Source: Deltaproteobacteria bacterium (GTDB taxonomy: Bacteria; Myxococcota; B64-G9). Taken from it: 61,880 nt of DNA. The stretch spans positions 1 to 61,880 of the forward strand of contig JAUXGL010000004.1 in assembly GCA_030622135.1 (NCBI GenBank), in the 5' to 3' direction. The notes beneath the pieces are model-generated. The model had not been told where the DNA came from and did not search any database. It worked only from the letters and a program-made list of their open reading frames with translations. A program made the position numbers and the translations under genes. Of the stretch, positions 1 through 49,978 are shown one piece after another. How positions within the stretch are numbered: the first letter of the stretch is position 1; each line of letters opens with the position of its first letter.

Positions 1-1435
1 CGTCGCAGTCGGCGTCGGTCCGGCAGTACCATTCGTGGTAGCAGCTGCCGTTTTCGCAGTAGTCGCTGGTGTTGGGATCGCCGTCGTCGCAGACCGTCCC
101 GCAGCCGCCGCAGTTGTTCGAGTCGGATGCGGTGTTCGTGCAGGTGCCGGAGCAGCAGGCCTGGCCGACCGCGCAATCGGAGTCGTTTTGGCACTGCGGC
201 GGGCAGCCCTCGTCGATTTGGCCGTCGCAGTCGTTGTCCCGCCCGTCGCAGACCTCGGGTTCGCAGCCGTCGTCGAGCCGGCACAGGCCGTTTTGACAGA
301 CCTGCCCCGCCGGGCAATCGGTATCGGTGTTGCAGGGCAGCAGCTTGACGCAGGTTTCGTTCAGGCAGGCCTCGCCCTGGACGCAGTCCGCGTCAGAGGC
401 GCATTCTCTACAGACGCCCTCGTCGATCAGGCCGTCGCAGTCGTTGTCCCGCCCGTCGCAGATTTCCGGGTTGCAGGACTCGCACTCGCCCACGTGATCG
501 AGCCCGACGCCGGTGCACTGCCGCTCGCAGTCGTTATGATAGGTGACCCGATCAGTGCCGCAGACCGGATCGTAGGGCTCGCCCGGGCAGTCGCAGGCGG
601 CCGCGCACACGCCGTTTTCGCATTGCATGCCCGCGGGGCAATCCGCGTTGTTCGTGCAGAGGTTCTGTCCGCAAGTCCCCTGGTGGGCGAGCGCCACGCC
701 GGTGCAGTCGAGCTCGCACGCGTTGGCGTAGGTGTTTCTATCCACGCCGCAGACGGGCTGATATGATTCGTTTTTGCATTGTGGACAGGGATCTTCCTTT
801 TGGCAGACGCCGTTTTTACAGGCGTAGCCCTGCGGACAGTCGTTGTCCGCCGCACAACCCGTGTTGCATATGCATTCCGACGGACAGCCCTGGTTGTTGC
901 GTTGGAACCCGGTGGCGCAGTAGCCCCCGCAGGGCATGGGCTCACACGGGGCCTTGTCGCAACCCAAGCTGCAGTCCACCTGTACCAGGTAGTCGCCCAT
1001 GGCGCCGGCCACGTTCTTGACCAGGATCAGGTAGTCTCCCGTCTGGTTCAAAGACACGTCCCACAGGACGGCCTGCACGCCTCTCTTGGGAAGGTTGTAG
1101 GTGATGGGCGCGCCAAAGAGGCCGTTGTACATGCGGGGCCCGTACAGGGCGACGGCCGGTGCCGCGTCGACGTCATTGGCCCGGACGGCCATGCCGATCG
1201 TGGCGTCGCCGGCGGTGGCGAAGATGTGGCCCGAGAATGGACGATCCTTGGAGAAGCTAGCAGCCCGGTCGGTTCCGAACGGCAGGGTTTTGGGATCCAG
1301 CGTCACTTGTTGTTCCAACCCGGCCGTGTTTATCAAAAGCGGGGGTGCCCAGTTCAGTTGATACTCGCCGCAGGAGGCCAGCCAAAGACCGAGTAAAAGT
1401 AGTACGGAAATTCGAATAAATATTCTTCGGCTCAT
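1..1435 (-). CDS. Cys-rich surface lipoprotein with two Kazal-type domains and two MopE-like 'CDGxDNDCDG' putative metal-binding motifs (3' end runs off the window)
   Basis: Hand translation of the minus strand from ATG 1435 (GGAGGAG RBS upstream): MSRRIFIRISVLLLLGLWLASC (lipobox), then PVCGVDRNTYANACELDC and PVCGTDRVTYHNDCERQC (Kazal), EICDGRDNDCDGLIDEG and EVCDGRDNDCDGQIDEG, and CxxDxDC repeats. It is absent from the ORF track because no stop occurs inside the window. Confidence 0.85.
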   Translation of the reverse strand, partial: MSRRIFIRISVLLLLGLWLASCGEYQLNWAPPLLINTAGLEQQVTLDPKTLPFGTDRAASFSKDRPFSGHIFATAGDATIGMAVRANDVDAAPAVALYGPRMYNGLFGAPITYNLPKRGVQAVLWDVSLNQTGDYLILVKNVAGAMGDYLVQVDCSLGCDKAPCEPMPCGGYCATGFQRNNQGCPSECICNTGCAADNDCPQGYACKNGVCQKEDPCPQCKNESYQPVCGVDRNTYANACELDCTGVALAHQGTCGQNLCTNNADCPAGMQCENGVCAAACDCPGEPYDPVCGTDRVTYHNDCERQCTGVGLDHVGECESCNPEICDGRDNDCDGLIDEGVCRECASDADCVQGEACLNETCVKLLPCNTDTDCPAGQVCQNGLCRLDDGCEPEVCDGRDNDCDGQIDEGCPPQCQNDSDCAVGQACCSGTCTNTASDSNNCGGCGTVCDDGDPNTSDYCENGSCYHEWYCRTDADCD

Positions 1436-17932: not shown

Positions 17933-18036
17933 CCTGTACGTTGGTGCCCTTACCCGGGGATCGCCTGGCGCTCTTGAAAAGCAGTTGAAGGCTCGTATAT
18001 GATTGCCGGCGAAGAATCCAATGTTTGAGGGATGCT

Positions 18037-33392: not shown

Positions 33393-34976
33393 TCATTTGG
33401 CCGTGTAGCCTTTCGCCGGTACAAGGTTGTCGATCAGGATGTGAAGCTCGTCATCAGTCAGTCTACCGTTGATCGCCAGGAGCAGCAATGTGTCTTTGGG
33501 TGATTCGAGAATTAGGCTGCTGCAATCATCGGAAGGTTGACTCTGGATGATGGGCCTGGCACTGTTGAGCAGGATATTAGTCAACCATTTGTCTTCCTTG
33601 GGACTCCAAACCTTGAACCCGTTCTGGCCGGTGTAGATGAGGCCCTTCTTCAGCTTCAGGAACTTTTTTTCTTTGTTGCTCATCTGGGCAAGTACGAGGT
33701 GCCGACCGTCCTTTGCCCGATAGCCGACGAAGAACATTTTCTGGATCGGTTCATGGGGGAGAGAAATCCGGACGATTTGTGGCTGATCGGTCCAGGAAGG
33801 TTTGGATGCGAACACATAGGTTTCGAAGTCCGAGCTTTCAGCCATATCCTGAACAGATAGATCTGGGACCATAAGATCGTGCAGAATTCTGGCTTGCGGC
33901 GCTTCGTTTGCATTGCCGCCTTGAATGTCTAACTTGGCCAGATCCCATTGAATTCCAGGAGAGTCGACGGTTTCTTTGTGAACCCGTCGGATTCGAAGCA
34001 GCCTATGATCGTCGACTACGAATTCCATCTCCGAGATGATTTCGTCGCTTTCCCGAACGTGAAATAGCCAGAAAGCCTTCAACTCGCCACTCGGGTTGGG
34101 CATGCCCACCTTGACGATTTTCATGGGGCAATCATCAATGACCCTCGAGTCGATGCCCAAGACCATGCTGTCGTCGATTTTGGATGAAAATCCAGCCGCG
34201 ATTCCGAGCAGCCGCGCGGTATCCTTGGGAACCTGGAAGCCTTCAGTAACCGGAAAAACGGCGATTTTCGGGTTGCCGTCCAGATCTTTTTTTAGCAAGT
34301 ATACAGTCGTACCATCGAAGGCATTGGCAAAGATCGGTTTTTGTTCAGACCACATCACACGGGAAAACCGGCCGGTGGACGACTCATGCCAAATCTCATC
34401 CACAACTTTGCAACTACGACCCGACCCAAGTGGGAGTTGAAGTTGGTCAAGGCGAAATCGTCCAGTGGCATCGAGAGATTGCAGCGGCAACCAGCCCAGC
34501 CCTTCCAACTCTGGGTTCAGAGAGCACTCGCCGGTGATCTCGTTTCTGATGTAAACAATGCCGTGCTTGTCGAAGAGACTACTCTCTGCCGCCCAGGCTC
34601 GGTTCAACAGGGCAAGACCGTTCCCGCCATGGCCGTACCAATGCTGCAAGGGAAGAAATATCAGTAGCAACAATACTGTCGCGATCGCGATCCCAATTTT
34701 CCAGGAAACAGAAGGGGAAAACGATGAAGGTGCGGATTCAGGAATGGGCAGTTTCGAGATGGTGACTTGGTTCATAACACGCTCCTTGAATTTGTCTGAC
34801 GATTTTACTCTATGGGCTGGCTGGATCGCCTGTATGGTTTTTTGTGCCACTTCATACTCGTGGGCACATCGAGGACAGGCATCGAGGTGGGCTACGATCT
34901 GGTTTGTATGAGCGGTCTTACCGATGTGAGTGTCAAGCAGATCCATAAGGTGATTACAGACGGTTCGGCATTTCAT
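33393..34976 (-). CDS. Zinc-finger (ZAS) anti-sigma factor with TM helix and large extracytoplasmic region
   Basis: MKC...HLDACPRC, TM helix; start overlaps the sigma stop (ATGA). Confidence 0.82.
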   Translation of the reverse strand: MKCRTVCNHLMDLLDTHIGKTAHTNQIVAHLDACPRCAHEYEVAQKTIQAIQPAHRVKSSDKFKERVMNQVTISKLPIPESAPSSFSPSVSWKIGIAIATVLLLLIFLPLQHWYGHGGNGLALLNRAWAAESSLFDKHGIVYIRNEITGECSLNPELEGLGWLPLQSLDATGRFRLDQLQLPLGSGRSCKVVDEIWHESSTGRFSRVMWSEQKPIFANAFDGTTVYLLKKDLDGNPKIAVFPVTEGFQVPKDTARLLGIAAGFSSKIDDSMVLGIDSRVIDDCPMKIVKVGMPNPSGELKAFWLFHVRESDEIISEMEFVVDDHRLLRIRRVHKETVDSPGIQWDLAKLDIQGGNANEAPQARILHDLMVPDLSVQDMAESSDFETYVFASKPSWTDQPQIVRISLPHEPIQKMFFVGYRAKDGRHLVLAQMSNKEKKFLKLKKGLIYTGQNGFKVWSPKEDKWLTNILLNSARPIIQSQPSDDCSSLILESPKDTLLLLAINGRLTDDELHILIDNLVPAKGYTAK

Positions 34977-35584
34977 TGTGACACCCTCCATTCCCGTCTG
35001 ACGATCTTTTCGATCTTCTTCAGGCCGTAACGCAAACGCGATTTGACCGTACCCACCGAGATACCGAGCACCTCGGATATTTCAGAGAAGCTGAGCTCGT
35101 CGTAAACACGTAGTCGTATCACTTCAGCCTGGCGTCTCGGCAGGCGTCCGAGAACGGCTTCAATACGCCGTATCTCATCACCGGCTACAGCGCTCGAATC
35201 GGCTGCATTACGGTGGTCGTCAGAGAGGTCGCCAGTTTTGATGGAAACTTGAGATTTTTTTGTTCGGTTTCGCAGCAGGTCGATACACGCGTTGGTTGCC
35301 ATGCGGTAGATATAAGGAACAACCTGGGTGACGTTTTGGTGCCTTGCTCGATCGGTAAAAGCGCGAACTAATACGTCCTGGATAACGTCCTCGGCGTCTT
35401 GAGTGTTGCCTAATCTGCAAAAAGCAAACCAGACTAGCCGGTCCTGAAGCACATCGACAAGACTTTCAAATTCTCCTACACTTTGTGGCCAGCCGGGTAT
35501 TTGCGGTTGGTTGAGTGAAGATAGCTTTTCGGCGGAGTCCTGAAGCTCTTCTTTGATTATTGGCAAGACTACCATTATATTCAT
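34973..35584 (-). CDS. ECF RNA polymerase sigma factor
   Basis: DAEDVIQDV, YRMATNACIDLLR, EISEVLGISVGTVKSRL. Confidence 0.92.
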   Translation of the reverse strand: MNIMVVLPIIKEELQDSAEKLSSLNQPQIPGWPQSVGEFESLVDVLQDRLVWFAFCRLGNTQDAEDVIQDVLVRAFTDRARHQNVTQVVPYIYRMATNACIDLLRNRTKKSQVSIKTGDLSDDHRNAADSSAVAGDEIRRIEAVLGRLPRRQAEVIRLRVYDELSFSEISEVLGISVGTVKSRLRYGLKKIEKIVRREWRVSQ

Positions 35585-36039: not shown

Positions 36040-37821
36040 TTGGGAAGTTCTGCACGCATATCTCTCAAAGACAACCCGGGTCAGGAGTGGGAGTTGGGTG
36101 CCGCTCAAATCTTCATAGGGAGCGCGGATAGTAGTGATGTCCGCGTACCCGACGAGTACGTATCTCCCCGTCACAGCCGGATCTATTTCGAGAATGGAAG
36201 CTATGTTATCGAGGGTCTGGGCGATCCTCCCTTGATGGTCAATGGGCGACACGTCACCAAGCAGATTCTCAAAAATGGCGATGAGATTACAGTATCAGAT
36301 TTGAAATACCTTTTCAGTACCCAGGGTTCGTCCGGTTCCGCGCTTAGCCCGAGCACTCCGAGCCAACCGGGTTTTATTGGATCCACTCCCATTGCCGATT
36401 CCGATGCCGGAGAAAAAATTTGCCGGGTGATTTCCAACATCAATCCCGAGGACTACTACGAAGCCGGTGACTATGATTTATTCTTTGGCCGTTCAGAAGA
36501 CTGCGACGTAATCATCCCAGACGAGTACATTTCATCTCGGCAGTCTCGGATATACTCTCACGAGGGGCAATGCGTCATTGAAAACCTGGGTGAAAATCCT
36601 CTTTTGATAAACGGGCGGCCGGTCAAAACTCATGTATTGAGAAACCTGGATGAGATTACCATTTCAGTCAGGAAGTTCACCTTCCACGTTGAAAATCCCG
36701 GGGCCGGCACCGCCGATGCCACTATCATTTCCTCGGCCGAAGACATGTTCTCGGTCTTCGGCGACTCGGATGACGACGAGATCCGCAGACGCAGCCTGGA
36801 GATTGTACGTGCCTTTGAAAAGGCCCACAAAAAGACCAAGCGTCGCTATACCGGCATCATCATTGTCACCGCGATTTTGTTAGTGCTTTCCGGTGGAATT
36901 GCCTTTTACCAACATTCCCAACTGGGTGATCAGCGGGAGATTGCCGAAAACCTGTTCTATCGACTCAAGGAAATGGAGTTGAAGTACGCCAAAAGCGATA
37001 ACCAGGAAAACCTGGCCGAGCGCAAGAAGATGTTGAATGACTACGAAAAACTCCTCAAGCAACAGAAAATCTACAAGAAAATGAGCCGGGAAGACCGGTT
37101 GATCCTCAAGATGGCTCACATGTTTGGGGAATGCGCCATAAACATTCCGCAAGGATTTATCGACGAAGTGCACGAATACATCAATTGGTGGCAAACCGAT
37201 CCCGAAAACAAGCACCGCTTGAAAAACTCCATCACCCGGGCCAAAAAGAAAAAACTGGATCGCTACATCCCTGAAATCATGATGCAGCACGGCCTGCCTC
37301 CGCAGTATTTCTACCTGGCCCTGAACGAGACCAATTTCAACGAGAAAATAGTCGGGCCGAGCACCAGATATGGATTTGCCAAGGGCATGTGGCAGTTCAT
37401 TCCCGATACCGCCAGGAGGTTTGGCCTCGAAACCGGTCGCCTGGTCGAGGAGCCAAAATACGACCCCGGTGACGATCGCCATGACATACAAAAATCCACC
37501 AACGCCGCCGCCCGGTATATCCGGGACATTTACGAGACCAAAGCCAAGGCCTCCGGACTTTTGGTGATAGCTTCATACAATTGGGGGGAACACCGGGTAA
37601 TTCGTGCCGTCGATAAAATGCCCGACAATCCCCGCGAAAGAAACTTCTGGCGCCTGCTGACCGATTTTGGAAACCAACTCCCGGAAGAAACCCACAACTA
37701 CGTCTTCAGAATCTTCTCGGCCGCGGTCATTGGAGAAGATCCCCAACTCTTCGGCTTTGACTTTGAAAACCCCCTGGCCTGGACCAAAGAGACCGATCAT
37801 ACCGAAGAGGAAGCCGGCTAA
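36040..37821 (+). CDS. Tandem FHA-like domains + TM helix + coiled coil + lytic transglycosylase (SLT/MltD-like)
   Basis: Two FHA-like repeats (IGS..VSPRHSRI; FGR..ISSRQSRI), TM YTGIIIVTAILLVLSGGIAFY, SLT motifs LALNETNF, AKGMWQFIPDTA, ASYNWGE, ETHNYV. Confidence 0.88.
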   Translation: MGSSARISLKDNPGQEWELGAAQIFIGSADSSDVRVPDEYVSPRHSRIYFENGSYVIEGLGDPPLMVNGRHVTKQILKNGDEITVSDLKYLFSTQGSSGSALSPSTPSQPGFIGSTPIADSDAGEKICRVISNINPEDYYEAGDYDLFFGRSEDCDVIIPDEYISSRQSRIYSHEGQCVIENLGENPLLINGRPVKTHVLRNLDEITISVRKFTFHVENPGAGTADATIISSAEDMFSVFGDSDDDEIRRRSLEIVRAFEKAHKKTKRRYTGIIIVTAILLVLSGGIAFYQHSQLGDQREIAENLFYRLKEMELKYAKSDNQENLAERKKMLNDYEKLLKQQKIYKKMSREDRLILKMAHMFGECAINIPQGFIDEVHEYINWWQTDPENKHRLKNSITRAKKKKLDRYIPEIMMQHGLPPQYFYLALNETNFNEKIVGPSTRYGFAKGMWQFIPDTARRFGLETGRLVEEPKYDPGDDRHDIQKSTNAAARYIRDIYETKAKASGLLVIASYNWGEHRVIRAVDKMPDNPRERNFWRLLTDFGNQLPEETHNYVFRIFSAAVIGEDPQLFGFDFENPLAWTKETDHTEEEAG

Positions 37822-37905: not shown

Positions 37906-38631
37906 TCAGAGGTAAGGGTTGTCCCGTGGAGAATGTGCTTTGTTTTTCCTATGAGTTGGTTTGCCTGGTTGTTCTTTCTTCTCTTCAGTAGTTGCCTGAA
38001 TAATTGCCCGGGGACCCAATTTTAGCTCAAGATCCAATGGCTTGATGATGATTTCCTCTTCCTTCCATAGCCATGCCCCGGTCTTCTTGTGAATGATTGG
38101 TATGGGAATCACCTGGGTCATGTCTTTGGGCTTAGACTCGAAATACCCGGCGGTTATGCCCAGGTAGCGGGTATTTTCGGCCCGGTCCAGGGGGATGTTT
38201 TTAATCTCGGAGGGGCCGATTTCCACTCCTGTGTGGTCGGTTACGTCATCTCCTAAGGGATTTTCCTCACATTCCACCAGTTGCGACAGTTTTTCAGGAT
38301 TCTTGGCCCAAGCGTTGAATAGTTTGGTGTTGCCCAGTTGGTAAATGCACAAGACCAGGGTGTGGGCTTCGTTCTCGAACCAGTTCAGCTTGGGGTCGGC
38401 CTTGATACGCAGCTTGATGGCTTTTTCCTGAGCGGGAATCACCGCCTGGCTGCGCTGCTGGGGCGTGGCTGGTTTTTGCACAACGGCGCAGCCCACGGCA
38501 ACCAAGGCGATTATTGCCGGCAACCAGGCCTGGAATGCCCATTTTGCCTGATTATCCAGGGATCTGCCCGCAGAGCATAGGTAATTTCTGATAGGCGTCG
38601 AGTTCACCCATTTTCTTGCCTGGTTTTCCAT
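37906..38631 (-). CDS. tssJ: T6SS outer-membrane lipoprotein TssJ
   Basis: Lipobox VAVGC; ADPKLN...LCIYQL...RYLGITAGYF; next to T6SS core genes. Start position uncertain. Confidence 0.85.
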   Translation of the reverse strand: MENQARKWVNSTPIRNYLCSAGRSLDNQAKWAFQAWLPAIIALVAVGCAVVQKPATPQQRSQAVIPAQEKAIKLRIKADPKLNWFENEAHTLVLCIYQLGNTKLFNAWAKNPEKLSQLVECEENPLGDDVTDHTGVEIGPSEIKNIPLDRAENTRYLGITAGYFESKPKDMTQVIPIPIIHKKTGAWLWKEEEIIIKPLDLELKLGPRAIIQATTEEKKEQPGKPTHRKNKAHSPRDNPYL

Positions 38632-39153: not shown

Positions 39154-40515
39154 GTGAATGCCGACAGGCCGATTTTCTGGCATCAGGGTCTGTTTTTGCA
39201 ACCCCAACATTTACAGCTCAACGACCGGTACCAGAGCTCGCTGGTCACCTCCCTGATCCGCTACGCCGGGACCCATTTGTTTGGAGTAGCCGACCTCCAG
39301 ATACAGGCGTCGAGCCTGGCCAATCAGCAGTTCGAGATACTTAAAGGAGAGTTCATCTTTCCCGACGGTACCCCGGCGGTTTTCCCGGGCAATACGGTCA
39401 TCAAGCCGCGATCCTTCGATGGAGCCTGGCAAGAGGCCGGCAAACCGTTTCCGGTTTACCTGGGGCTGCGCAAATGGAGCGCCAACGGCGAAAACGTTAC
39501 CGTGGTCTCCCAACCGGAAGAAATGGCCCGGGTGAACAGCCGCTTCGCCACCACTGACGATCCCGACGATGTCAACGATCATCACGGCAAGGGGCCCCCG
39601 GCCAAGGTCAAGCGCCTCAACCATGTAGTCAGGTTGTTCTGGGAAACCGAGAGGGACATGATGGACGAATACTCCCTGATTCCCATCGCCCAACTGGAGC
39701 GCGACGGGGGGGAGATCCGGCTGTCGAGACACTTTGTTCCGCCCAGCCTGACCATGGCCGCCTCGGAAAAACTGCTCAAAACCTTAAAGGACATCCGCGA
39801 TCAAGTCTCCTCGCGTAGCCGCCAGCTCGAGCAATACAAGAGCACCAAGGAAGTGCACTCATTGTTATTGGCGCTGTATGCGCTCAACCGGAACGTCCCG
39901 GTCCTGAACCAGCTCAACGAGACCAAGGATGTTCACCCCTGGGTGGTTTACGGGACACTCCGGCAGCTGGTGGGTGAGCTGTCCACGTTTGTATCCGGCC
40001 GGAGCGCGACCGGGGAAGGGTCTGATGGCACGTCGGCCCTGCCGCCCTACAACCACCAGAACTGCTGGCCGTGCTTCTCGGCCGCGCATCAGCTCATCGG
40101 CAGGCTGCTCGAGGGCCTGGTGTCCGGGCCCGAGCACCTGATCCGGATGGATTTTGACGGCAACTACTACAACGCCAGCATACCCAAGGATCTGATTGAT
40201 CCGCAGAACGCCTTCTGGCTGGTTCTGCAGACCGAGAGCAACGCCGCCGTGGTCAAGAGCGCCGTCGGCCAGGTGGTCAAGCTGGCCACCTCCCAGACCT
40301 TACCCACTCTGATCGCCCGGGCGCTGCCCGGCATTTCGCTTAGCTACCATCCGGGAACTCCGCCGGGCTTGCCCCAACGCACCAACACCCACTTCTTCCG
40401 CATAGACACCAATAGCCGCTTATGGGCCGGCGTAGAGCAAACCGAGGGTCTGCTCCTGTACTGGGACCGATCGCCAGCCGACCTGGTGGCCGAGATAATC
40501 GTGGCGAAGGAATAA
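39154..40515 (+). CDS. tssK: T6SS baseplate subunit TssK
   Basis: IFWHQGLFLQPQHLQ, PDGT, FVPPSL, ALPGI. Confidence 0.95.
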   Translation: MNADRPIFWHQGLFLQPQHLQLNDRYQSSLVTSLIRYAGTHLFGVADLQIQASSLANQQFEILKGEFIFPDGTPAVFPGNTVIKPRSFDGAWQEAGKPFPVYLGLRKWSANGENVTVVSQPEEMARVNSRFATTDDPDDVNDHHGKGPPAKVKRLNHVVRLFWETERDMMDEYSLIPIAQLERDGGEIRLSRHFVPPSLTMAASEKLLKTLKDIRDQVSSRSRQLEQYKSTKEVHSLLLALYALNRNVPVLNQLNETKDVHPWVVYGTLRQLVGELSTFVSGRSATGEGSDGTSALPPYNHQNCWPCFSAAHQLIGRLLEGLVSGPEHLIRMDFDGNYYNASIPKDLIDPQNAFWLVLQTESNAAVVKSAVGQVVKLATSQTLPTLIARALPGISLSYHPGTPPGLPQRTNTHFFRIDTNSRLWAGVEQTEGLLLYWDRSPADLVAEIIVAKE

Positions 40516-40520
40516 GCCTG

Positions 40521-41810
40521 ATGTCTCTGATCGCTTGTTTCCAGGAAGTCATCGCATACACTTCGTATCTGATCGAGAGCGAGGACCGCTCCGGCCTTTC
40601 CTTCGAGGCGGTCAGAGGCGATCTGGATAAATTATTCGCCGAGGCCGACCAGATCGGTCAGAGCTATCCAGCGGGTACGCCCGGCAGCCAGATACCCGTG
40701 GTTGCCGATCCGCCTCCGGCCGGAGGCGGAAATCTCACGCCGCAGACAGACTCGGCCGCCAGGACGGTATTGAGACCCGCGGTTCAGGTATCGAACCCGG
40801 TATTGATCATAGAGAGTGCCCAGGGGTCTTCCTCCGTGGAGGTCAACCGGGACCCATTCGTGCTGGGCCGAGCTATAGAGTGCAACGCCGTGATCAATGA
40901 CAATCTGGCATCTCGCAGACACTGCCGGATTGATCACAGAAACGACGGCTTATGGTACGTGGTGGATCTCAAATCGGGAAACGGCACAGAGGTCAACAAC
41001 CAGCCCATCGAGCAGCAGGTGCTTAGCGACGGAGACAAGCTGCGGGTGGGTGATACCTTCATTACCTTCAACCTGGCGGTCACCGACCAGCCGGCAGCCC
41101 CCATGCACTCAGCGCATGAACCGGTCACCTCCGCCCCCCCGGCGCCGGCTTTCCCACCCGCTGCAAGACCCCGTACGTCTTCGGTCGCCGGCGAGGTCGG
41201 CGTAGTCACATCCGCCTCCCCGGCGCCGGCTTTCCCACCCGCTGCAAGACCTCGTACGTCTTCGGCCGCCGGCGAGGACGGCGTAAGTGCCACCGACTAC
41301 GAAAACGCCAAGTTTGCCGTGTGTGCCTGGGTGGATGAAGCCATCCTGACCTCCTCCTGGGAAGGTCGAATGGAATGGCTCAAACAGCCTTTGCAGCGAC
41401 GTTTTTTCAATACCACCAACGCCGGCGAGGAGTTCGTCGAGCGCTTGCGGAAACTCGGGCCTGAGAAAAAATCGGTACGGGAAATCTACTCCCTGTGCCT
41501 GGCCATGGGATTCACCGGACCCTTCTACCAGGACGACACCGCTGCCTTGGAAGAGCTCAAGCAGCATAATTACCAGCACTTGTGGGGCGGCAAACCCGGC
41601 GATCAGGAACTTATGGGAAAGTCCCTTTTCCCGGCAGCCTACCCAACCAGCATGCCGCTGAAAAAGGGAAGCCAGAAGAAGTGGAAGTGGCAACCCCTGG
41701 TAAGCCTGGGCCTGATTTTCGGTACGCCGTTGCTGGTGCTGATCCTGTACTGGATCTATAGCGGCATTCTTGACGGCATGGTTCAAGGCATTCTGGAGTC
41801 AGCCCAGTAG
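40521..41810 (+). CDS. tssL: T6SS TssL/DotU with an internally inserted FHA domain
   Basis: DotU motifs AKFAVCAWVDEAIL, LQRRFFNTTNAGEEF, EIYSLCLAMGFTG, C-terminal TM; FHA (LGR..ASRRHCRI..DLKSGNGTEVN) at about 40800-41075. Confidence 0.9.
   Translation: MSLIACFQEVIAYTSYLIESEDRSGLSFEAVRGDLDKLFAEADQIGQSYPAGTPGSQIPVVADPPPAGGGNLTPQTDSAARTVLRPAVQVSNPVLIIESAQGSSSVEVNRDPFVLGRAIECNAVINDNLASRRHCRIDHRNDGLWYVVDLKSGNGTEVNNQPIEQQVLSDGDKLRVGDTFITFNLAVTDQPAAPMHSAHEPVTSAPPAPAFPPAARPRTSSVAGEVGVVTSASPAPAFPPAARPRTSSAAGEDGVSATDYENAKFAVCAWVDEAILTSSWEGRMEWLKQPLQRRFFNTTNAGEEFVERLRKLGPEKKSVREIYSLCLAMGFTGPFYQDDTAALEELKQHNYQHLWGGKPGDQELMGKSLFPAAYPTSMPLKKGSQKKWKWQPLVSLGLIFGTPLLVLILYWIYSGILDGMVQGILESAQ
41124..41285 (+). 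repeat. 81-bp in-frame tandem duplication in the TssL linker
   Basis: VTSAPPAPAFPPAARPRTSSVAGEVGV / VTSASPAPAFPPAARPRTSSAAGEDGV. Confidence 0.93.
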
Positions 41811-41838
41811 AGCAGCGAAAGGTCACCGAGGGACACGG

Positions 41839-44800
41839 ATGAGGAGATACGTCAAGCCGGCATTGATCCTGACCGCCATCGTACTTGTCATTCTGGTCAT
41901 TTGCATCATGGCGAGAACCTGGGGCGAGTGGCAGTGGATCTCGGTGGCGATCCTCGGCGTGGGAATGTCCGCTTTGGCCCTGGGGATCTTCTTTCTGAAG
42001 AAATGGCTTTTTCGGCGCAGTGACAAGAAGTTCGTCGGCGGCATCATGGACGAAGAGGAGGATGCCGCCAAACATGTGGTTGCCGCGGACCAGCAGGCCA
42101 TAGGCGATCTGCAGAAGCGCTGGAAAGACGCCATGGAGGCGCTCAGGCGCGCCCACATGAAAAAGAAGGGACAGGCCTACCAGGTGCAGCCCTGGTTTAT
42201 GATCATGGGCGAGCCGGGTTCGGGGAAGACCGCGGCCATCAAGGGCTCGCGGCTGCATTCTGCACTGACCGACGTGAGCCCGTCCTCGGCAACCTCGGGA
42301 ACCGGCAACTGTGACTGGTGGTTCTTCGAGAAATCCCTGATTTTGGACACGGCGGGACGTTACACCGTTTGGGCCGATGAAGATCAGGACAAGCCGGAGT
42401 GGCGCGAGTTCGTGATGCTTCTGGCCAAGTATCGCAAGAGAAAACCCATCAACGGCCTGATTGTCACCGTGGCGGCCGACAAGCTGGTGAATGCCGAGCC
42501 CGACGCCCTGGCCGATTACGGCCGCACCATCCGCCGCCGCATCAACGAGTTGATGCGTGCCTTTGGAACCCGGTTTCCGGTATATGTGCTGGTTACCAAG
42601 ATCGATCAGATGTTCGGGGTGATGGCCTTATGCGATCAGCTTCCCGAGGAGGCCCTGGGTTCAGCCATGGGCCGCGCCAACTCGGCCTTGAGAGCGGACG
42701 CGGTCGGTGTGCTGGAAAGGACTTTCGTCGAGATCCCTGATCGCATCCGGGGCCTGGAAGTGCTGCTTCTGCACCGCGGAGAAGAGCCCGACCCCGGAAT
42801 CTTGCTTCTGCCCGAAGAGTTTGCCAAGCTCAAGCCCGGCCTGGGACGTTTCGTGGAGGCGATTTTCCAAAAGAGCGGGTACCACGAAGATCCCATCCTG
42901 AGAGGGATCTACTTCTCCAGTGCCAGGCAGGAGACCTCCGATGTCAAGCTGCCGGCATCCCTGAGTGCTTTCCAGTCGAGCCAGAAGGAGCGTCCGGGCG
43001 GCTTCAGGGGGCTGTTTCTGAGGGATTTCTTCTCCAAAATTCTGCCGGGTGACAAGGAGCTGTTGGCCCCCCTGATGGAGGCGGTGGCCACCCAGCGCAA
43101 AATCAAGACCATCGGTGTGGCTGCATGGATAGCCATCATGATCTTCATCGCGGGATTGCTGACCATTTCGTTCTTCAAGAACCTGGGTATCATTGATTCT
43201 TTCAAGCACGATCTGGAGTTTCCCTCACTGGAAGCCGGCGGGGAAGTTGACGCCCAGGAGGCCAAACAGGAAGAAAACGCCGACCGCATGGCTAAATTCC
43301 AGGCCAAGCTCACCAAGTTGCATAAGGAGACCGAGAAAGGCATTCCCATTGATATGGGCCTGGATGCCAGCGAAAGGCTGACCGAGGCGGCCAAGAAGGC
43401 TTTCTGTCAGTTACTGCGTAAGCACTTCCTGGACGAACTGGATAAGAGAATCACCGACAATATCAAAAACCTGTCGGTGGAAGCCTCTAAAGAATTCATA
43501 GGCAAATACGCCGAGCATCTGCAAACCCGGGTTGGCCTGCTGAAGACCAGGCTGAGCAAAGACCAGGACGGGGACCAACTGCTGAAGGAATTGAAAAGCG
43601 CCTCTGAAAGCATCTTCAAAGACCTGAGGGCCATCGACGTAAGGCTTATCCCGGATATGGTCTCCGAGCACATGTTTGCCCTCTACCAGGGTTACCTGCT
43701 GTGGGATCAGAACCGCGAGATGCTGGAGCAAGAAAAAACAGACCTGACCGGAAATCTGATAACCTTGGCGGTCAAGGGCGAGAATCTCAACTGGTTGGTC
43801 GGCTGGGCCAACCTGCTGCCGGACATCAAAAAAATCACCATGGCCCAGTTCTGGGGACGCGAAACAGAGGCAGCGGAATATAACTACGTTCCCAGGGCCT
43901 ATACCCGCGAGGGGCAAAAGAAAATTTTCGGGTTCATTGATCGCACCCTGGAACTGCTGGTGGACGATGACATCAACCACGGCAAGCTGCTTGGCCGCAA
44001 GAATAAATTCCAGAACTGGTATCAAAGCCAATACCTGAAGGCCTGGCGCAGGTTCTGTAAGAATTTCATACTGGATTCCCGGCAGCTTGAGGAATCCGAA
44101 CGCATCCAGTTGGCCCAGGACATGGGAGATCCTAAGAAGAATCCTTACTTCAGGTTGCTAGACAGCATGGCAGACCACCTGTCGGACTTGCCCCATAAGG
44201 ACGAAGCACAAAAGTGGGTCAAGTGGGCGACTGAATTCCCACGTAATCGGAAATTGGCTGAGGGTGTTTTGATGGCCAACAAAGAGGGGAGTACGGCAGA
44301 CGACGAGAAACCGAATCAACGCCGCTTTTCAGATAAAGCGATAACAGCCAAAATGCCACAGAAGCTGGCAGCCTATGTGAAATGGCTGAAAGAAGTCGGC
44401 AAGAAGGTCAAGTCGGACAAGGACACTTACAAGATGTTCTCCAAGCTCTATCAACGCGAGCGGTCGAACCCCCTATTTGAATCCTATACCGCATACAAGA
44501 AGATCGAACGCCTTTATAACCAGTCTCGAGAAAGAAACCCCTACCTGGCGTTGCTGGCCGGGCCCGTGGCTTACCAGCTCAACTACGCGGGGGCAGTGAC
44601 CCGTGACAGGATCCAGGAGCAATGGAGAGAAAAGGTGTTGTCCCGGGCAGACGGCTTGAGCGGGCCGGATCTCAAGGATGCACTGTTCGGAGAGGGCGGA
44701 GTGGTCCGGAAATTCGTCAAGGAGAGCCCGGGTAGTACCTTCATTGAATATCAGGCCACCAGCGGCAGATACGTGCCCAAGAGGGCCCTGGGCAACCGCT

Positions 44801-45330
44801 TTCCCTTCAGTCAGAAGTTCCTGGAATTTGTGAACAAGGGATTCAGACTGACCTCCGGGAAGGTCAAGGACGAGTACAAGATCAAGGTTAGGTTCAAGCC
44901 CACCGGTGCTGAAGGGGGAAAGATCTCTAAGACCGTGCTAACTCTGCAGTGCGGTGATATGGAATTGCAGAAGCTAGAGAACCGGAATTTTGGCAAACCC
45001 CCGCAGTCGTTCACGTGGAAGCCGGGGACCTGTGGAGATGTGAGGCTGGAGATGTTTTTCAAGAAGGGATTCAGGGTCTCCAGGGTTTACAAGGGGGCCT
45101 ATGGGTTCCGCGATTTCATGAAGGATTTTCGCACGGGAGCGCGGGTGTTCGTTGGTGAAAGATTTTCTCGAGAAGACCGGGAGAAACTCAAAAGACATGG
45201 CGTTCGCAGCATCACGGTCAAGTACAAATTCTCCGGCCAGGACGCCAAGGCCGTTGGTAAGTTGAGTTCGATTACGTTGCCACGAACACCTCGGGCTATA
45301 ATCCAGAAACCCACCCGGCTTTTCAAGTGA
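41839..45330 (+). CDS. tssM: T6SS membrane subunit TssM/IcmF
   Basis: N-terminal TMs, PWFMIMGEPGSGKT, CDWWFF, LDTAGRY, PINGLIV, FPVYVLVTKID, LRGIYFSSA. Confidence 0.93.
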   Translation: MRRYVKPALILTAIVLVILVICIMARTWGEWQWISVAILGVGMSALALGIFFLKKWLFRRSDKKFVGGIMDEEEDAAKHVVAADQQAIGDLQKRWKDAMEALRRAHMKKKGQAYQVQPWFMIMGEPGSGKTAAIKGSRLHSALTDVSPSSATSGTGNCDWWFFEKSLILDTAGRYTVWADEDQDKPEWREFVMLLAKYRKRKPINGLIVTVAADKLVNAEPDALADYGRTIRRRINELMRAFGTRFPVYVLVTKIDQMFGVMALCDQLPEEALGSAMGRANSALRADAVGVLERTFVEIPDRIRGLEVLLLHRGEEPDPGILLLPEEFAKLKPGLGRFVEAIFQKSGYHEDPILRGIYFSSARQETSDVKLPASLSAFQSSQKERPGGFRGLFLRDFFSKILPGDKELLAPLMEAVATQRKIKTIGVAAWIAIMIFIAGLLTISFFKNLGIIDSFKHDLEFPSLEAGGEVDAQEAKQEENADRMAKFQAKLTKLHKETEKGIPIDMGLDASERLTEAAKKAFCQLLRKHFLDELDKRITDNIKNLSVEASKEFIGKYAEHLQTRVGLLKTRLSKDQDGDQLLKELKSASESIFKDLRAIDVRLIPDMVSEHMFALYQGYLLWDQNREMLEQEKTDLTGNLITLAVKGENLNWLVGWANLLPDIKKITMAQFWGRETEAAEYNYVPRAYTREGQKKIFGFIDRTLELLVDDDINHGKLLGRKNKFQNWYQSQYLKAWRRFCKNFILDSRQLEESERIQLAQDMGDPKKNPYFRLLDSMADHLSDLPHKDEAQKWVKWATEFPRNRKLAEGVLMANKEGSTADDEKPNQRRFSDKAITAKMPQKLAAYVKWLKEVGKKVKSDKDTYKMFSKLYQRERSNPLFESYTAYKKIERLYNQSRERNPYLALLAGPVAYQLNYAGAVTRDRIQEQWREKVLSRADGLSGPDLKDALFGEGGVVRKFVKESPGSTFIEYQATSGRYVPKRALGNRFPFSQKFLEFVNKGFRLTSGKVKDEYKIKVRFKPTGAEGGKISKTVLTLQCGDMELQKLENRNFGKPPQSFTWKPGTCGDVRLEMFFKKGFRVSRVYKGAYGFRDFMKDFRTGARVFVGERFSREDREKLKRHGVRSITVKYKFSGQDAKAVGKLSSITLPRTPRAIIQKPTRLFK

Positions 45331-45376
45331 AGAGCGGCGCCGGGGTGTGAGTGCAAAGGGAGGGAAACCCGATAGC

Positions 45377-46936
45377 ATGGATTTGCAACAACTAGGAAAA
45401 CAGCCGATCAGCCCGGAGAATCCCGCGGGTATCGACACGTCCGACGAACTGGCGGAGTTCGACAACCTGGAAGATGAGATCCGAAAACTCTCGGTACCGT
45501 CGGTTGCCGGCGGAGGCGTCGACTGGGACCGGGTGGTCGAATTCTCAGAATTCATCCTGGCCGAGAAATTCAAGAGCCTCCGGGTTGCCGTCTACCTGGC
45601 CGTGGCCCTGGCGAGAACCCGCGGTCTGGAGGGACTATCCTCCGGACTGATGATTCTAAAGGATCTTACGGACAATTTCTGGGACAGCTTTTACCCGTCC
45701 AAGCCGCGGGGGCGCCGCGGTGCCCTGGAGTGGTGGTTCGAACGCACCGAGTCCTTCCTGGCGGCCGGTTCCGAGACTCCGGTTCCCGAGGAGTTGGTAA
45801 ACACCACCCTCGGTCAACTGGAAGAGCTCGGACGGCTTCTGTCGGAAAAGATTGAGGACGCCCCGGACATTTCCCGCCTGGGCAGTTATCTGAGAAGTTG
45901 GCCTACCCAGGCCGCCGCAGTGGCTGACCCGGCTCCCGCGCAAACACCGGCGCCTCCAGCTCCGGATACGCCAAAACCTCCGGCCGCCCCGTTATCCACC
46001 GGTGATATCGATACGCCCCAGGATGCCGAGCGAGCGCTGGAGACCAACCTGCGTCAGCTGGTTTTGGTGTCCGATCAACTCTTGCGCCAGGATCCGTCCA
46101 ACCCTCTGGCCTATCATTTAATCCGTATCGGCTCCTGGCTTACCGTAGGCCTGCCCCCTCCGACCACCAGCGGTAACCAGACAGCCCTGCCGCCGCCGGA
46201 TGCCATGGTTCGCAGTGGGATCGAGAGATTGCTGACCGGCCACGACTATGAGGCGGCGATCGGTCAGGCCGAGGAGCGAGTGGGCGAGTTTCTGTTCTGG
46301 CTGGATCTGAGCCGCTTTACCTTCCAGGCCCTAGAGCAGTTGGGGGGCAGGTATCAGATGGCCATGGAAGCGGTAGCCGGTCAGACCGTCCTTTACTTCG
46401 GCCGGCTGTCTGGCTTGGAAAACCTGGCTTTTTCCGACGGTACCCCCTTCGCCGACCCGGAAACCCGGGCCTGGCTGAATTCCATCACCGCTCAGGAAGC
46501 CGCTGCCTCCCCGATTTTGGCCGCCAACGGTGACGGCTCGGGCATCGAGGCCGAAGTGGCCGAGGTGTTTCTTGAAGCCCAGGGGCTGATAAAGGACAAG
46601 CAGCTTTCCGAGGCCGTGATGCTGCTGCACCATCACCTGGCTAGGGGCGGCTCGGGTCAGGAGCGTTTCACCTGGCGCATCGCCCTGGCCCAACTCCTGC
46701 TCGGTGCCGGTCAGATTGATCTGGCCCGTCCGCACCTGGAGCAACTGCTTAGCCAGGTTGAGGAGTACCAACTGGAGCAGTGGGATCCCAGGCTGGCCCT
46801 CCAGGCCCTGATGCTGGTCCATCAGGGGTTGTCCGGAGACGCCCGGCCCGAGGCCCAGGAGAAGGGAGCCGGGGCTTTCGACCGGATAGTCCAGATCAAC
46901 CCGGCGGCCGCCTTGCAAATCAAGAGCAAATCATGA
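45377..46936 (+). CDS. tssA: T6SS TssA (ImpA N-terminal + VasJ-like)
   Basis: PISPENPAG, VDWDRV, KSLRVAVYL, FWLDL, FSDGTPFAD, LEQWDP. Confidence 0.92.
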   Translation: MDLQQLGKQPISPENPAGIDTSDELAEFDNLEDEIRKLSVPSVAGGGVDWDRVVEFSEFILAEKFKSLRVAVYLAVALARTRGLEGLSSGLMILKDLTDNFWDSFYPSKPRGRRGALEWWFERTESFLAAGSETPVPEELVNTTLGQLEELGRLLSEKIEDAPDISRLGSYLRSWPTQAAAVADPAPAQTPAPPAPDTPKPPAAPLSTGDIDTPQDAERALETNLRQLVLVSDQLLRQDPSNPLAYHLIRIGSWLTVGLPPPTTSGNQTALPPPDAMVRSGIERLLTGHDYEAAIGQAEERVGEFLFWLDLSRFTFQALEQLGGRYQMAMEAVAGQTVLYFGRLSGLENLAFSDGTPFADPETRAWLNSITAQEAAASPILAANGDGSGIEAEVAEVFLEAQGLIKDKQLSEAVMLLHHHLARGGSGQERFTWRIALAQLLLGAGQIDLARPHLEQLLSQVEEYQLEQWDPRLALQALMLVHQGLSGDARPEAQEKGAGAFDRIVQINPAAALQIKSKS

Positions 46937-47005: not shown

Positions 47006-47497
47006 ATGGCAAAAGAACTCTCAGTGGCACCTAAGGAACGTGTCAATATCGTCTACCGGCCGGCAACCGGTGATGCCCAGGAAGAAGTGGAGCTTCCGTT
47101 CAGGCTTCTAGTCCTGGGAGATTTCAACCAGAAAGAGGACGACCGCGAGGTGGAAGATCGCGATCCCATCAACGTGGATCCCAACAACTTCAACGATGTC
47201 CTCAAAGAGCAGAAGATCGCGCTGGATATCACCGTGCCCAACAAGCTCTCCGAGGTGGAGGGCGAAGAGATGGCGGTGAAGCTGAACATCAACCACATCA
47301 AGGATTTCGAACCGGATCGGATTATCAAGAAGGTACCCGAACTAGCCAAGCTGCTGGAGTTGCGCGAGGCGCTCAAGGCTCTCAAGGCACCGCTGGGCAA
47401 CGTGCCGGCATTCAGGAAGAAACTCCAGTCGCTGATTTCCGACCAAGGGGCCCGTGAGCGGCTGCTCAAGGAACTGGGCATTGACGAAGAGAAATGA
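47006..47497 (+). CDS. tssB: T6SS sheath small subunit TssB
   Basis: SVAPKERVNIVY, ELPF..LVLGDF, VPELAKLLELREAL. Confidence 0.96.
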   Translation: MAKELSVAPKERVNIVYRPATGDAQEEVELPFRLLVLGDFNQKEDDREVEDRDPINVDPNNFNDVLKEQKIALDITVPNKLSEVEGEEMAVKLNINHIKDFEPDRIIKKVPELAKLLELREALKALKAPLGNVPAFRKKLQSLISDQGARERLLKELGIDEEK

Positions 47498-47508
47498 GGA
47501 GGCGAATC

Positions 47509-48990
47509 ATGGCCGATGTAGAAAAAGAAAAGACACAAGCAGCAGAAGAGGCGGTCGAAGATGGCTCGTCACTTCTGGATCAGATAGTTGAAGCTACCAA
47601 GATCAAACCCAAGGACGAGGAATATTCACTTACCCGGGTGGGAGTCCAGGCCTTCATCGACGAGATGCTCAAGCCGGGCCGCGAAGGCCAGAAGATCAGC
47701 GGGGCCATCGTGGACGAGATGATCGCCAATATCGATCATAAGATGAGCTCCCAGGTCAGCGCCATCCTGCATACCAAGGATTTCCAGAAGCTGGAGTCCT
47801 CCTGGCTGTCGCTCAAGTATCTGGTGGAGAACACCAACTTCAAGGAGAACATCAAGATCTCCGTGGTGAACGTGAGCAAGGACGATCTTCTGGACGATTT
47901 CAAGGACAAGATGGACGTAGTCAAGTCCGGGCTGTACAAGACCGCCTATACCGCCGAATATGGCACTCACGGCGGTGAGCCTTACGGCGGCATCATTGCC
48001 AACTACGACTTCGGCCCTGGGGCCCAGGACATGAAGCTGCTGGGTTACGTGGCCAGCGTGGCCGCCATGGCCCATGCGCCGTTCATTGCCGCGGCCAATG
48101 AGGAGTTCTTCAAGATCGACTCTTTCTCCGAGCTTGCCGGAATGAAGGACATCAAGTCCACGCTTGAGCGCCATGCCAAGTGGCAGGGATTTCGGGAGTC
48201 CGAAGACTCGCGTTACGTGGGCCTAACCCTGCCCCGGTTTCTGCTGCGCCTGCCTTACTCGCCGGACACCGTACCGGCCAAGAGCTTCACCTTCAAGGAA
48301 GAGGTGGGCCCGGGCGATGACGATTTTTGTTGGGGTAACACGGCGTTCACCTTTGCCAGCCGCATGACCGCCAGCTTCGCCAGTTACCGGCTGTGCGCCA
48401 ATATCATCGGACCCCGCGGCGGTGGCACCGTGGAAGACATGCCGGTCTATGAGTATGAGGCCATGGGAGCCGTCCAGGCCAAGATCCCCACCCAGGTGGA
48501 GGTTTCCGATCGTATGGAATTCATCCTGGCCGAGGAAGGTTTCATGGCCTTGACCATGCGCAAGGGCAAGGACAACGCCACCTTCTTCTCGGCCAACTCG
48601 GTCCAGAGACCCAAGACCTTCGGAAACACCAAGGAGGGTAAGGAAGCCGAGACCAACTTCAAGCTGGGCACCCAGTTCCCCTACATGATGGTAGTCAACC
48701 GTCTGGCGCACTATCTCAAGGTCATCCAGCGCGAGAACCTGGGTAGCTGGAAGGGCCGGGGAGAGTTGGAGGACGAGCTTAACAAGTGGATCTCCCAGTA
48801 CATCTCTGATATGGGCAATCCATCCCAGGCGGTGCGCAGCCGCAGACCACTGCGCAAGGCCCAGATTGACGTGACCGATGTGGAAGGTGATCCGGGCTGG
48901 TATCGGGTATCCATGAAGGTCGTGCCCCACTTCAAGTTCATGGGCGCGTCTTTTACCTTGTCTTTGGTTGGTAAACTGGACAAGCAGTAA
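47509..48990 (+). CDS. tssC: T6SS sheath large subunit TssC
   Basis: FQKLESSW, EYGTHGGEPYG, PRFLLRLPY, RLAHYLKVIQRE, PHFK. Confidence 0.96.
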   Translation: MADVEKEKTQAAEEAVEDGSSLLDQIVEATKIKPKDEEYSLTRVGVQAFIDEMLKPGREGQKISGAIVDEMIANIDHKMSSQVSAILHTKDFQKLESSWLSLKYLVENTNFKENIKISVVNVSKDDLLDDFKDKMDVVKSGLYKTAYTAEYGTHGGEPYGGIIANYDFGPGAQDMKLLGYVASVAAMAHAPFIAAANEEFFKIDSFSELAGMKDIKSTLERHAKWQGFRESEDSRYVGLTLPRFLLRLPYSPDTVPAKSFTFKEEVGPGDDDFCWGNTAFTFASRMTASFASYRLCANIIGPRGGGTVEDMPVYEYEAMGAVQAKIPTQVEVSDRMEFILAEEGFMALTMRKGKDNATFFSANSVQRPKTFGNTKEGKEAETNFKLGTQFPYMMVVNRLAHYLKVIQRENLGSWKGRGELEDELNKWISQYISDMGNPSQAVRSRRPLRKAQIDVTDVEGDPGWYRVSMKVVPHFKFMGASFTLSLVGKLDKQ

Positions 48991-49024
48991 CTTTGACGAT
49001 CACTTGCGGAAAGGGGAGAAAATC

Positions 49025-49516
49025 ATGGCAATGACGAGTTATCTGAAATTAGAAGGCATTGAACAGGGATCCATCGAGGGAGATTGCGCCCAGAAGGCCA
49101 ACCTGAACTGGATCCTGGTCTACGGCACCGAGTCAAAGATCGGCATACCCACCGATCCTCTGACCGGCTTGCCTACCGGTCAGCGGGTACACGGCCCGTT
49201 CAAGATCATAAAGCGGATGGATCCAGCCACTCCCCAGCTCTACCAGGCCTGCGCCACCGGAGAGCACATGAAGTCCTGGGAGCTGGTTTACAAGAGGATC
49301 AACGATAAGGGCATGGAGGAAGTCTTCTTCACCATCAAGCTGGAGAACTCCATCGTGGTTTCCATGAAGCACTACAAGCCCCTGGCCTTCCTGGAGGAGA
49401 ACAAACCCTACCACGACATGGAAGAGGTCTCGTTCACCTACTCGCGGATCACCTGGACCCACAATATTGCCAGCCGGGAAGCAGTGGATGACTGGAAGGA
49501 GCCCAAGGGCGGCTGA
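49025..49516 (+). CDS. hcp: T6SS tube protein Hcp (TssD)
   Basis: YLKLEGIEQGSIEG, PTGQRVHGP, EEVSFTY..ITWTH, DDW. Confidence 0.96.
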   Translation: MAMTSYLKLEGIEQGSIEGDCAQKANLNWILVYGTESKIGIPTDPLTGLPTGQRVHGPFKIIKRMDPATPQLYQACATGEHMKSWELVYKRINDKGMEEVFFTIKLENSIVVSMKHYKPLAFLEENKPYHDMEEVSFTYSRITWTHNIASREAVDDWKEPKGG

Positions 49517-49558: not shown

Positions 49559-49978
49559 ATGCCCAAAGAGCGTCTGCTAGAAAGAATTCGGCGGATCGAG
49601 GCGAATCCCAACTATCGAGGGTTGACCAACTCTGCTCAGGTGGTGGAATCCATCCTGCGTCACCTTCAGAAGGTGCTGAACACGCGCCAGGGTAATGCCC
49701 TGATTGGCGATGACTACGGAATGCCGGACTTCACCGACCTGGTAATGGCCTTTTCCTCGGGGGCGGTGAAGGATCTGGCTCGATCCATCTCCCGGGTTAT
49801 CCAGAAGTTCGAACCCCGCCTGAGCGGAATCAAAGTCAGAGTCGATCCGCGGCAAAGCGACTCCTTCGAGCTGCACTTCAGGATTGCGGGCAAGCTGACC
49901 ATGGAAGACAACGTGTATGTTCCGGTCACCTTTGCCACAGTGGTGGACCCAGACGGCAGGATTACAGTGAGTCAGTAG
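49559..49978 (+). CDS. tssE: T6SS baseplate TssE (gp25-like)
   Basis: HLQKVLNTRQG, DYGMPD, FEPRL. Confidence 0.95.
   Translation: MPKERLLERIRRIEANPNYRGLTNSAQVVESILRHLQKVLNTRQGNALIGDDYGMPDFTDLVMAFSSGAVKDLARSISRVIQKFEPRLSGIKVRVDPRQSDSFELHFRIAGKLTMEDNVYVPVTFATVVDPDGRITVSQ

Follow-up and report, generated by a model that had tools for sequence, protein, structure and literature searches.

A rare TssL protein with an FHA domain inside its DotU fold, encoded in the type VI secretion cluster of an uncultured Myxococcota genome

Introduction

TssL (DotU family) is a membrane-complex protein found in type VI secretion systems (T6SS), and Fha/TagH is an FHA-domain protein of the same systems that is normally encoded by a separate gene. 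A single gene at 40521..41810 of the 61,880-bp stretch analyzed here (contig JAUXGL010000004.1 of assembly GCA_030622135.1, Deltaproteobacteria bacterium) appears to combine TssL with an FHA domain, which raises the question of whether such a gene is real and, if so, what an FHA domain may do within TssL. This stretch, referred to as the window, is one whole contig of a 4.79-Mb, 280-contig metagenome-assembled genome (MAG) that is 92.8% complete (G000), and its tssL-FHA protein is referred to as P0001. A sequence-only reading of the window had proposed that the DotU domain is interrupted after its first two helices by a linker, a canonical FHA domain and a second linker, and that phosphothreonine (pThr) sensing is thereby built into the membrane complex. 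Here, we report that the gene is real and intact and encodes a TssL of rare architecture, and we weigh the possible roles of its insert.

Results

The tssL-FHA open reading frame (ORF) lies uninterrupted between tssK and tssM. It starts 6 nt past the tssK stop, with an AAGGA-type ribosome-binding site 8-14 nt upstream of its ATG, and it yields the single DotU match of the whole genome. Its parts and the evidence for each are the following.

40521..41810, + strand: tssL-FHA gene, 429 aa, sole DotU gene of the genome (Pfam, NCBIfam, ORF translation)
40521..40661, + strand: DotU helices 1-2, residues 1-47 (alignment with short TssLs; structure model; within the Z 20.9 match to 6y4r_A)
40662..40790, + strand: linker 1, residues 48-90, Pro/Gly/Ala-rich, predicted disordered (model confidence <50 in both models; composition)
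40791..41084, + strand: FHA domain, residues 91-188 (Pfam; structure model; invariant columns; alignment with 3po8)
41085..41285, + strand: linker 2, residues 189-255, Pro/Ala-rich (tandem duplication; composition; model confidence <50)
41286..41615, + strand: DotU helices 3 onward, residues 256-365 (Pfam DotU profile 41-202; structure model; fold match)
41691..41804, + strand: C-terminal transmembrane anchor helix, residues 391-428 (both structure models; alignment with short TssLs)

The Pfam DotU profile (PF09850) matches only residues 248-413 of the protein, which correspond to profile positions 41-202 of 205 (114.4 bits vs. a cut-off of 27), and the NCBIfam DotU/TssL model TIGR03349 is matched at 106.4 bits, above its cut-off of 89.95. 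The missing first 40 profile positions are found in residues 1-47, which are collinear with 27 short (~225 aa) TssLs in a MAFFT alignment restricted to DotU (A1) and include the near-invariant M1, L3 and L38. After residue 47, A1 opens a gap of ~205 residues, and the match to TssL restarts at 'SATDYENAKFAVCAWVDE'. An AlphaFold2 (AF2) model built on A1 has helices at residues 3-19 and 28-47 with a predicted local distance difference test score (pLDDT) of 85-97 and the rest of the helical bundle at residues 250-360 with pLDDT 78-98, and a predicted helix at residues 391-428 aligns with the membrane anchors of the 27 TssLs. Low-pLDDT stretches were cut from this model before structure comparison (VIA-align), in which the trimmed model matched the cytoplasmic domain of Acinetobacter baumannii TssL (6y4r_A) with Z 20.9 and a root-mean-square deviation of 2.1 Å over 152 of 160 residues, spanning model range 1..358. 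The best six entries were all TssL/DotU (Z 17.4-20.9), and the seventh dropped to Z 6.0. The match to solved TssLs covers the domain in full, and the two parts of DotU are therefore predicted to close into a normal TssL fold around the insert.

The insert itself comprises residues 48-255 and is made up of Pro-rich linker 1 (8 Pro in 43 residues), the FHA domain and linker 2 (14 Pro in 67 residues). FHA profile PF00498 is matched at residues 114-177 over positions 2-67 of 67 (64 bits vs. a cut-off of 20.7), and a second AF2 model, built on an alignment of FHA sequences only (A3), folds residues 91-188 as a beta sandwich with pLDDT 94-98. Among 19 aligned FHA sequences, no variation is seen at G116, R117, S131, R132, H134, S152, G155 and T156 and almost none at N154, and the pThr-contact residues (G116-R117, S131-R132-x-H134 and N154-G155-T156) align with those of the Rv0020c FHA domain (3po8). 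Linker 2 contains a tandem duplication of an 81-bp unit (2.0 copies, 93% matches, 41124-41285), owing to which 'APAFPPAARPRTSS.AGE.GV' is present twice. Thus, Pfam, A1 and AF2 agree in placing the break in the DotU domain within the loop that joins helices 2 and 3, and the GR, SRRH and SGNGT motifs are retained in a full-length canonical FHA domain, which confirms the anatomy that had been proposed.

Since the source genome is a 280-contig MAG, we considered whether the insert might be a metagenome-assembly artefact at the 81-bp repeat, or the gene a pseudogene. Among Logan unitigs, sequences from four runs of three studies are 100% identical to the window over both junction regions. One unitig (40339-40943) runs from the end of tssK through DotU-N into the FHA domain, and another, from a different study (41248-41464), links the second repeat unit to DotU-C. 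No Logan unitig covers 41171-41247, which lies inside the tandem repeat, and so only the copy number of the repeat is without unitig support; in the protein variants there are two. P0166, also of 429 aa and different at one residue, is encoded on three other contigs, the longest being 52,355 bp, while a 283-aa variant fragment (P0167) extends from the FHA domain through two repeat units and DotU-C to the transmembrane (TM) helix; both belong to the same 90% cluster and together they span the whole region in other assemblies. In addition, the reading frame is open, and the tssK-tssL-tssM order of the flanks is the same in two related genomes (G003 and G008). The gene is thus unlikely to be an assembly artefact, and the occurrence of its protein on independent metagenome contigs shows that it is no chimera. 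The explanation by chimera or pseudogene is largely refuted already and, in our estimation, very improbable.

How common is this combination? An exhaustive phmmer search with P0001 of 1.84 billion representative proteins returned 35,766 hits at E ≤ 0.001, and architecture was judged on the best 150 of these using our own DotU and FHA hidden Markov models (HMMs). This identified 112 DotU-only proteins, 36 FHA-only proteins and two with both domains, namely P0001 and P0019. Pfam agreed with these HMMs on the 21 hits compared. A word-indexed search with P0001 found the DotU and FHA pair in one of its 18 hits, which was P0001 itself, while a DotU profile search gave no FHA among the 120 hits listed of 414. 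Of 20 long DotU open frames picked from the phylum, 18 encode DotU, none with FHA, and the other two are a tssM frame. Searching genome contigs for related loci with P0001 gave no relative, and the same search with P0168, a fusion protein of the P0019 type, gave 80 kept loci that all match only its FHA part (residues 176-394), with no further fusions among them. We also found no description of a TssL-FHA fusion in the literature. Accordingly, the architecture is not a common one, being confined to two lineages among the best 150 of the 35,766 hits, although weaker and more distant DotU-FHA fusions possibly lie below these.

DotU matches were found in 125 of 401 genomes of the phylum, but in only two of the 17 other genomes of the window's own family (G003 and G008). 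Partial NCBIfam matches to GltG and EspA may likewise point to Myxococcota as this phylum. FHA is therefore linked to TssL in two of the three T6SS-bearing genomes among the 18 of the family, and it is so linked at two different sites. G003 has a plain 225-aa TssL that is identical to P0022; a Pkinase-TPR gene lies two genes from its tssJ (L016:10131-12800). In G008, which belongs to a sister genus, tssK is followed first by a shortened DotU ORF and next by one that encodes FHA, a Pro-rich linker and the membrane anchor of TssL. The part of DotU lost from the former is found in a different frame, which amounts to two apparent frameshifts in this assembly (frame 2 to 0 to 2). This break (L004 / L015:230-1483) may reflect either an assembly error or a pseudogene in G008. 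The metagenome proteins P0168 (395 aa) and P0019, which are of this type, have no such break, and in P0168, P0019 and G008 alike the order is complete DotU, FHA, linker and TM helix. This sister type shares the T6SS lineage and FHA subfamily of P0001, but it carries its FHA domain between the complete DotU and the TM helix rather than in the helix 2-3 loop. Consistent with this difference, our DotU HMM splits P0168 at profile positions 177/175, and BLAST of P0001 against P0168 yields four non-collinear segments. The FHA stretch of P0168 is 37% identical to that of P0001 over 176 aligned positions, with G-R, S-x-x-H and N-G-T kept. A likeness between the starts of the two inserts ('SYPAGT' and 'AYPVAT') was considered as a shared junction and rejected as too short.

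The history of the two fusions was approached through trees of both domains. In the DotU tree, the TssL backbones of both fusion types and four plain TssLs form one six-row group (SH-like approximate likelihood ratio test, SH-aLRT, 88 for the group as a whole), which includes both P0002 and P0022, the G003 TssL. In the FHA tree, one group of 13 of the 74 rows (SH-aLRT 83) unites the FHA domains of the two fusion types with those of FHA-TM proteins ~700 aa long, from the same bacterial family. The FHA-TM protein of this genome (674 aa) lies in an operon-like PP2C - PBP1A - FHA-TM arrangement (C178:17806-23784), whose PP2C carries a cyclic nucleotide-binding (cNMP) domain. A free quick FHA tree placed the G000 FHA outside the group formed by the G008-type and the ~700-aa proteins, whereas forcing the TssL-FHA sequences into a single clade raised the log-likelihood by 12 (p-AU, approximately unbiased test, 0.717). 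As judged from these trees, FHA may have been captured by TssL once, or twice.

The contig holds a complete T6SS, with tssJ, K, L, M, A, B, C, hcp, tssE, F, G, clpV and vgrG. Its genes other than tssL-FHA are listed below.

36040..37821, + strand: FHA-FHA-TM-SLT lytic transglycosylase gene (P0169, 593 aa; Pfam FHA twice plus SLT)
37906..38631, - strand: tssJ (PF12790)
39154..40515, + strand: tssK (PF05936, 334.9 bits)
41770..45330, + strand: tssM, with Walker A motif 'GEPGSGKT' (PF14331; TIGR03348; translation)
45347-46936, + strand: tssA (family matches)
47006-47497, + strand: tssB (family matches)
47494-48990, + strand: tssC (family matches)
48968-49516, + strand: hcp (family matches)
49559-49978, + strand: tssE (family matches)
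49997-51730, + strand: tssF (family matches)
51268-52707, + strand: tssG frame (family matches)
52783-55434, + strand: clpV (family matches)
55434-56219, + strand: conserved ORF after clpV, 261 aa (kept in G008)
57082-59241, + strand: vgrG (family matches)

The sequence-only reading had seen no standalone FHA gene in this cluster. This part did not hold, as the gene of P0169 adjoins tssJ, and its product combines a pair of FHA domains with a membrane helix and an SLT lytic transglycosylase domain (Pfam and translation). As read from the sequence, both FHA domains of P0169 depart from the canonical residue pattern. An ortholog is present in the G008 T6SS cluster (L014:5793-7604, + strand), with 52% identity over the full length. 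FHA and SLT occur together in 114 of the 120 P0169 homologues listed, which are mostly single-FHA forms of ~480-500 aa, and only four clusters of two-FHA size (~570-606 aa) are among these 120. Some of the single-FHA homologues are named from Acidobacteria. A possible role of P0169 is to open the cell wall for T6SS insertion under phospho-regulation.

In contrast, the absence of dedicated phosphorylation genes was borne out. None of the 46 Pkinase matches and none of the five PP2C_2 matches of the genome lies on the contig, and a scan of 26 further contig ORFs gave no kinase or phosphatase. Therefore, there is no ppkA or pppA in the cluster, and any kinase acting on this system would be encoded elsewhere in the genome, as had been supposed. 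Likewise, no protein of the whole genome scores above the NCBIfam cut-off for TagH (best 55.1 vs. 120.25 bits).

Discussion

What, then, may the FHA domain do within TssL? The closest precedents are found in Agrobacterium tumefaciens and Acidovorax citrulli. For the former, PMC3953482 describes how PpkA phosphorylates TssL at Thr14, how Fha binds pThr14 and thereby activates secretion, and how the resulting Fha-pTssL complex is required for Hcp recruitment and secretion. That system and the present one have in common a Walker A motif in TssM and an FHA domain that acts, or here would act, on TssL itself at the membrane complex's cytoplasmic side. The two differ in that Fha of Agrobacterium is encoded on its own and recognizes pThr14 within an N-terminal TssL extension, with the kinase PpkA present in the cluster, whereas here the FHA domain lies within the TssL chain and the cluster has no kinase. 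Given the antiparallel topology of the bundle, the helix 2-3 loop would lie at the same bundle end as the N-terminus, which is the site of pThr14 in Agrobacterium. For Acidovorax, a preprint (bioRxiv 10.1101/2023.12.21.572528) reports that Fha is needed for TssL foci, that its disordered region binds the TssL cytoplasmic domain while its FHA part binds TssE, and that this TssE and TssL binding was seen in pull-downs from E. coli. Furthermore, a review states that loops 3-4 and 6-7 of enteroaggregative E. coli TssL touch TssK and TssE.

Comparison with other protein classes places the present protein more exactly. P. aeruginosa Fha1 and Acidovorax Fha are likewise linked to T6SS and have an N-terminal-type FHA domain followed by a disordered region, but TagH is cytosolic, whereas the present FHA is anchored to the membrane through TssL and has no TagH C-terminal region. 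Extended TssLs with OmpA-like or SPOR domains (such as P0007, DotU plus PF00691, and P0050, DotU plus SPOR) also combine a TssL core with a fused accessory function. However, their additions are periplasmic, lie behind the TM helix and bind peptidoglycan, while the present addition is cytoplasmic, lies inside the DotU fold and belongs to a signaling domain class. The Yop-YscD_cpl profile (PF16697) also matches the FHA region (41.9 vs. 33.2 bits), overlapping the general FHA match and scoring below it. Like P0001, the YscD/PrgH proteins of type III secretion systems (T3SS) place a cytoplasmic FHA-fold domain on a membrane-ring part of an injection machine, turned toward the cytoplasmic platform, although both machine and protein are different and the present context is T6SS. 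The YscD/PrgH FHA-fold domains are not known to have the pThr-binding residues that are kept here.

In view of the published Fha-TssL contacts in Agrobacterium and Acidovorax, we lean with modest confidence toward the insert being a tethered Fha/TagH module of a functional TssL in a complete T6SS. In this reading, pThr binding, the identity of a partner, kinase control and an effect on assembly are inferences. Anchoring of FHA to the membrane complex would bring a pThr-binding module and its flexible linkers to the cytoplasmic side, the docking place of the baseplate; a partner could be phosphorylated on threonine by one of the 46 genome Ser/Thr kinases encoded outside the cluster, and its binding might then promote or license membrane complex-baseplate assembly. 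The nearest FHA relatives of the insert are found in the PP2C-containing operon, and no separate TagH scores above the cut-off, both of which favor such a module. The retention of the pThr residues in both lineages at 37% FHA identity likewise favors real phosphopeptide binding. The duplicated 'RPRTSS' motif of linker 2 is a candidate FHA ligand.

Several observations weigh against this module, or at least against its phospho-control. The lack of any kinase or PP2C match on the contig has been given above, and in G008 there is similarly no kinase or phosphatase in the cluster or within ~15 kb, the nearest kinase match being ~15 kb beyond. Comparing the linkers of the two fusion types revealed no Thr motif common to both, and 'RPRTSS' is not conserved in P0168. 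The protein is not a TagH family member, as the TagH model TIGR03354 is matched at 45.6 bits against a cut-off of 120.25 and only in its FHA part (profile positions 16-178 of 420), with the TagH C-terminal region absent. The organism is an uncultured MAG, none of the sequencing runs that hold the stretch is an RNA run, and the count of fusions, being taken from the best 150 of the 35,766 hits, is a lower bound on their occurrence. Phospho-control is likely but not required by the anatomy, because Fha proteins can also act without a kinase, according to the Acidovorax preprint (bioRxiv 10.1101/2023.12.21.572528), and a review notes the same for V. cholerae TagH, which acts without TagE. Overall, of the proposal that phospho-sensing is built into the membrane complex, the anatomy, the lack of TagH and the lack of a contig kinase have stood, while the supposition of a cluster otherwise free of FHA genes has not.

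The main rival is a phospho-independent scaffold, in which the FHA domain and its disordered linkers would serve as a permanent, tethered hub for the recruitment of baseplate or further T6SS components such as TssE. This mode would resemble that of kinase-less TagH and of the FHA-like cytoplasmic domain of T3SS ring proteins. It suits the kinase-free and phosphatase-free clusters of both G000 and G008, the binding of TssE by the N-terminal part of Acidovorax Fha and of TssL by its disordered region, the function of V. cholerae TagH without TagE, and the additional match to Yop-YscD_cpl. On the other hand, all of the pThr-contact residues are kept in both fusion lineages despite their FHA domains being only 37% identical, which argues for selection on phosphopeptide binding; moreover, 46 kinase and five PP2C genes are present in the genome, and the nearest FHA relatives share an operon with a PP2C. 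We therefore regard a purely structural hub as doubtful, albeit deserving of serious consideration. We place considerably lower a third explanation, in which a mobile FHA-coding segment landed in permissive TssL loops and is merely harmless. Three related TssLs (P0005, P0006 and P0008) do have Pro/Ala-rich low-complexity inserts of 60-230 residues between helices 1 and 2, from which it can be judged that N-terminal TssL loops tolerate insertions generally, and linker 2 appears to be evolving fast, as seen in its tandem duplication and repeat variants. Nevertheless, two diverged lineages, with FHA at two sites, both keep an intact canonical FHA core, tssL-FHA is the sole TssL of a complete cluster, and the combination is otherwise not seen in the best 150 of the 35,766 hits, a pattern that suits retention within a single lineage better than random landing at high frequency. 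Hence, a functionless insertion seems improbable.

The tethered module could also be part of a broader arrangement, which we offer tentatively. Fha/TagH function may have moved into the membrane complex at two TssL sites in two genera, such that TssL would serve as both anchor and pThr receptor. The same orphan-kinase signal might reach the FHA-FHA-SLT protein, in which case cell-wall opening and baseplate docking would be coupled to one phospho-switch. In addition, the duplicated Thr-bearing linker could be a ligand in trans, through which phosphorylated TssL protomers would cross-link into a multimeric ring.

The fusion of two partner genes is a classic signature of functional interaction. 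A natural FHA-TssL fusion at two sites within one lineage thus provides independent evolutionary evidence for the FHA-TssL contact and suggests that this contact is core to T6SS control rather than a quirk of single species. How Fha/TagH starts T6SS assembly is unsettled, and in the sources cited above direct Fha-TssL contact is reported only for Agrobacterium and Acidovorax. The type of regulation is already known, while a TssL with FHA inside the DotU fold is a new variant. It also reveals FHA-permissive sites on TssL, offers a compact construct for structural study of the interface between FHA and the membrane complex, and widens TssL diversity from periplasmic add-ons to a cytoplasmic signaling insert within the fold.

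Additional observations

The tssM ORF as listed has a TTG start that overlaps tssL, with an in-frame ATG at 41839. TssM matches TIGR03348 at 332 bits, below the cut-off of 388, and only in its N-terminal half (residues 58-567), its periplasmic part being divergent from the family model. The 261-aa ORF behind clpV has no Pfam or NCBIfam match and is 44% identical to the post-clpV ORF of G008 (L014:7742-8524, - strand), which marks it as a conserved T6SS accessory gene. Beside the G008 cluster, too, L014:2990-5777 contains genes for a single AAA+ protein of 366 aa that resembles ClpV and for a 538-aa product with matches to VipA as well as VipB, which makes the latter a fused sheath-like paralogue. 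Elsewhere in the window, a small FHA-only ORF (154-aa frame, 17989-18450, + strand) adjoins a gene for a PocR/sigma-54 activator (18517-20061, - strand). Directly upstream of the T6SS cluster lies a pair of genes for an extracytoplasmic function (ECF) sigma factor and its anti-sigma factor (33393-35584, - strand), which may control T6SS transcription.

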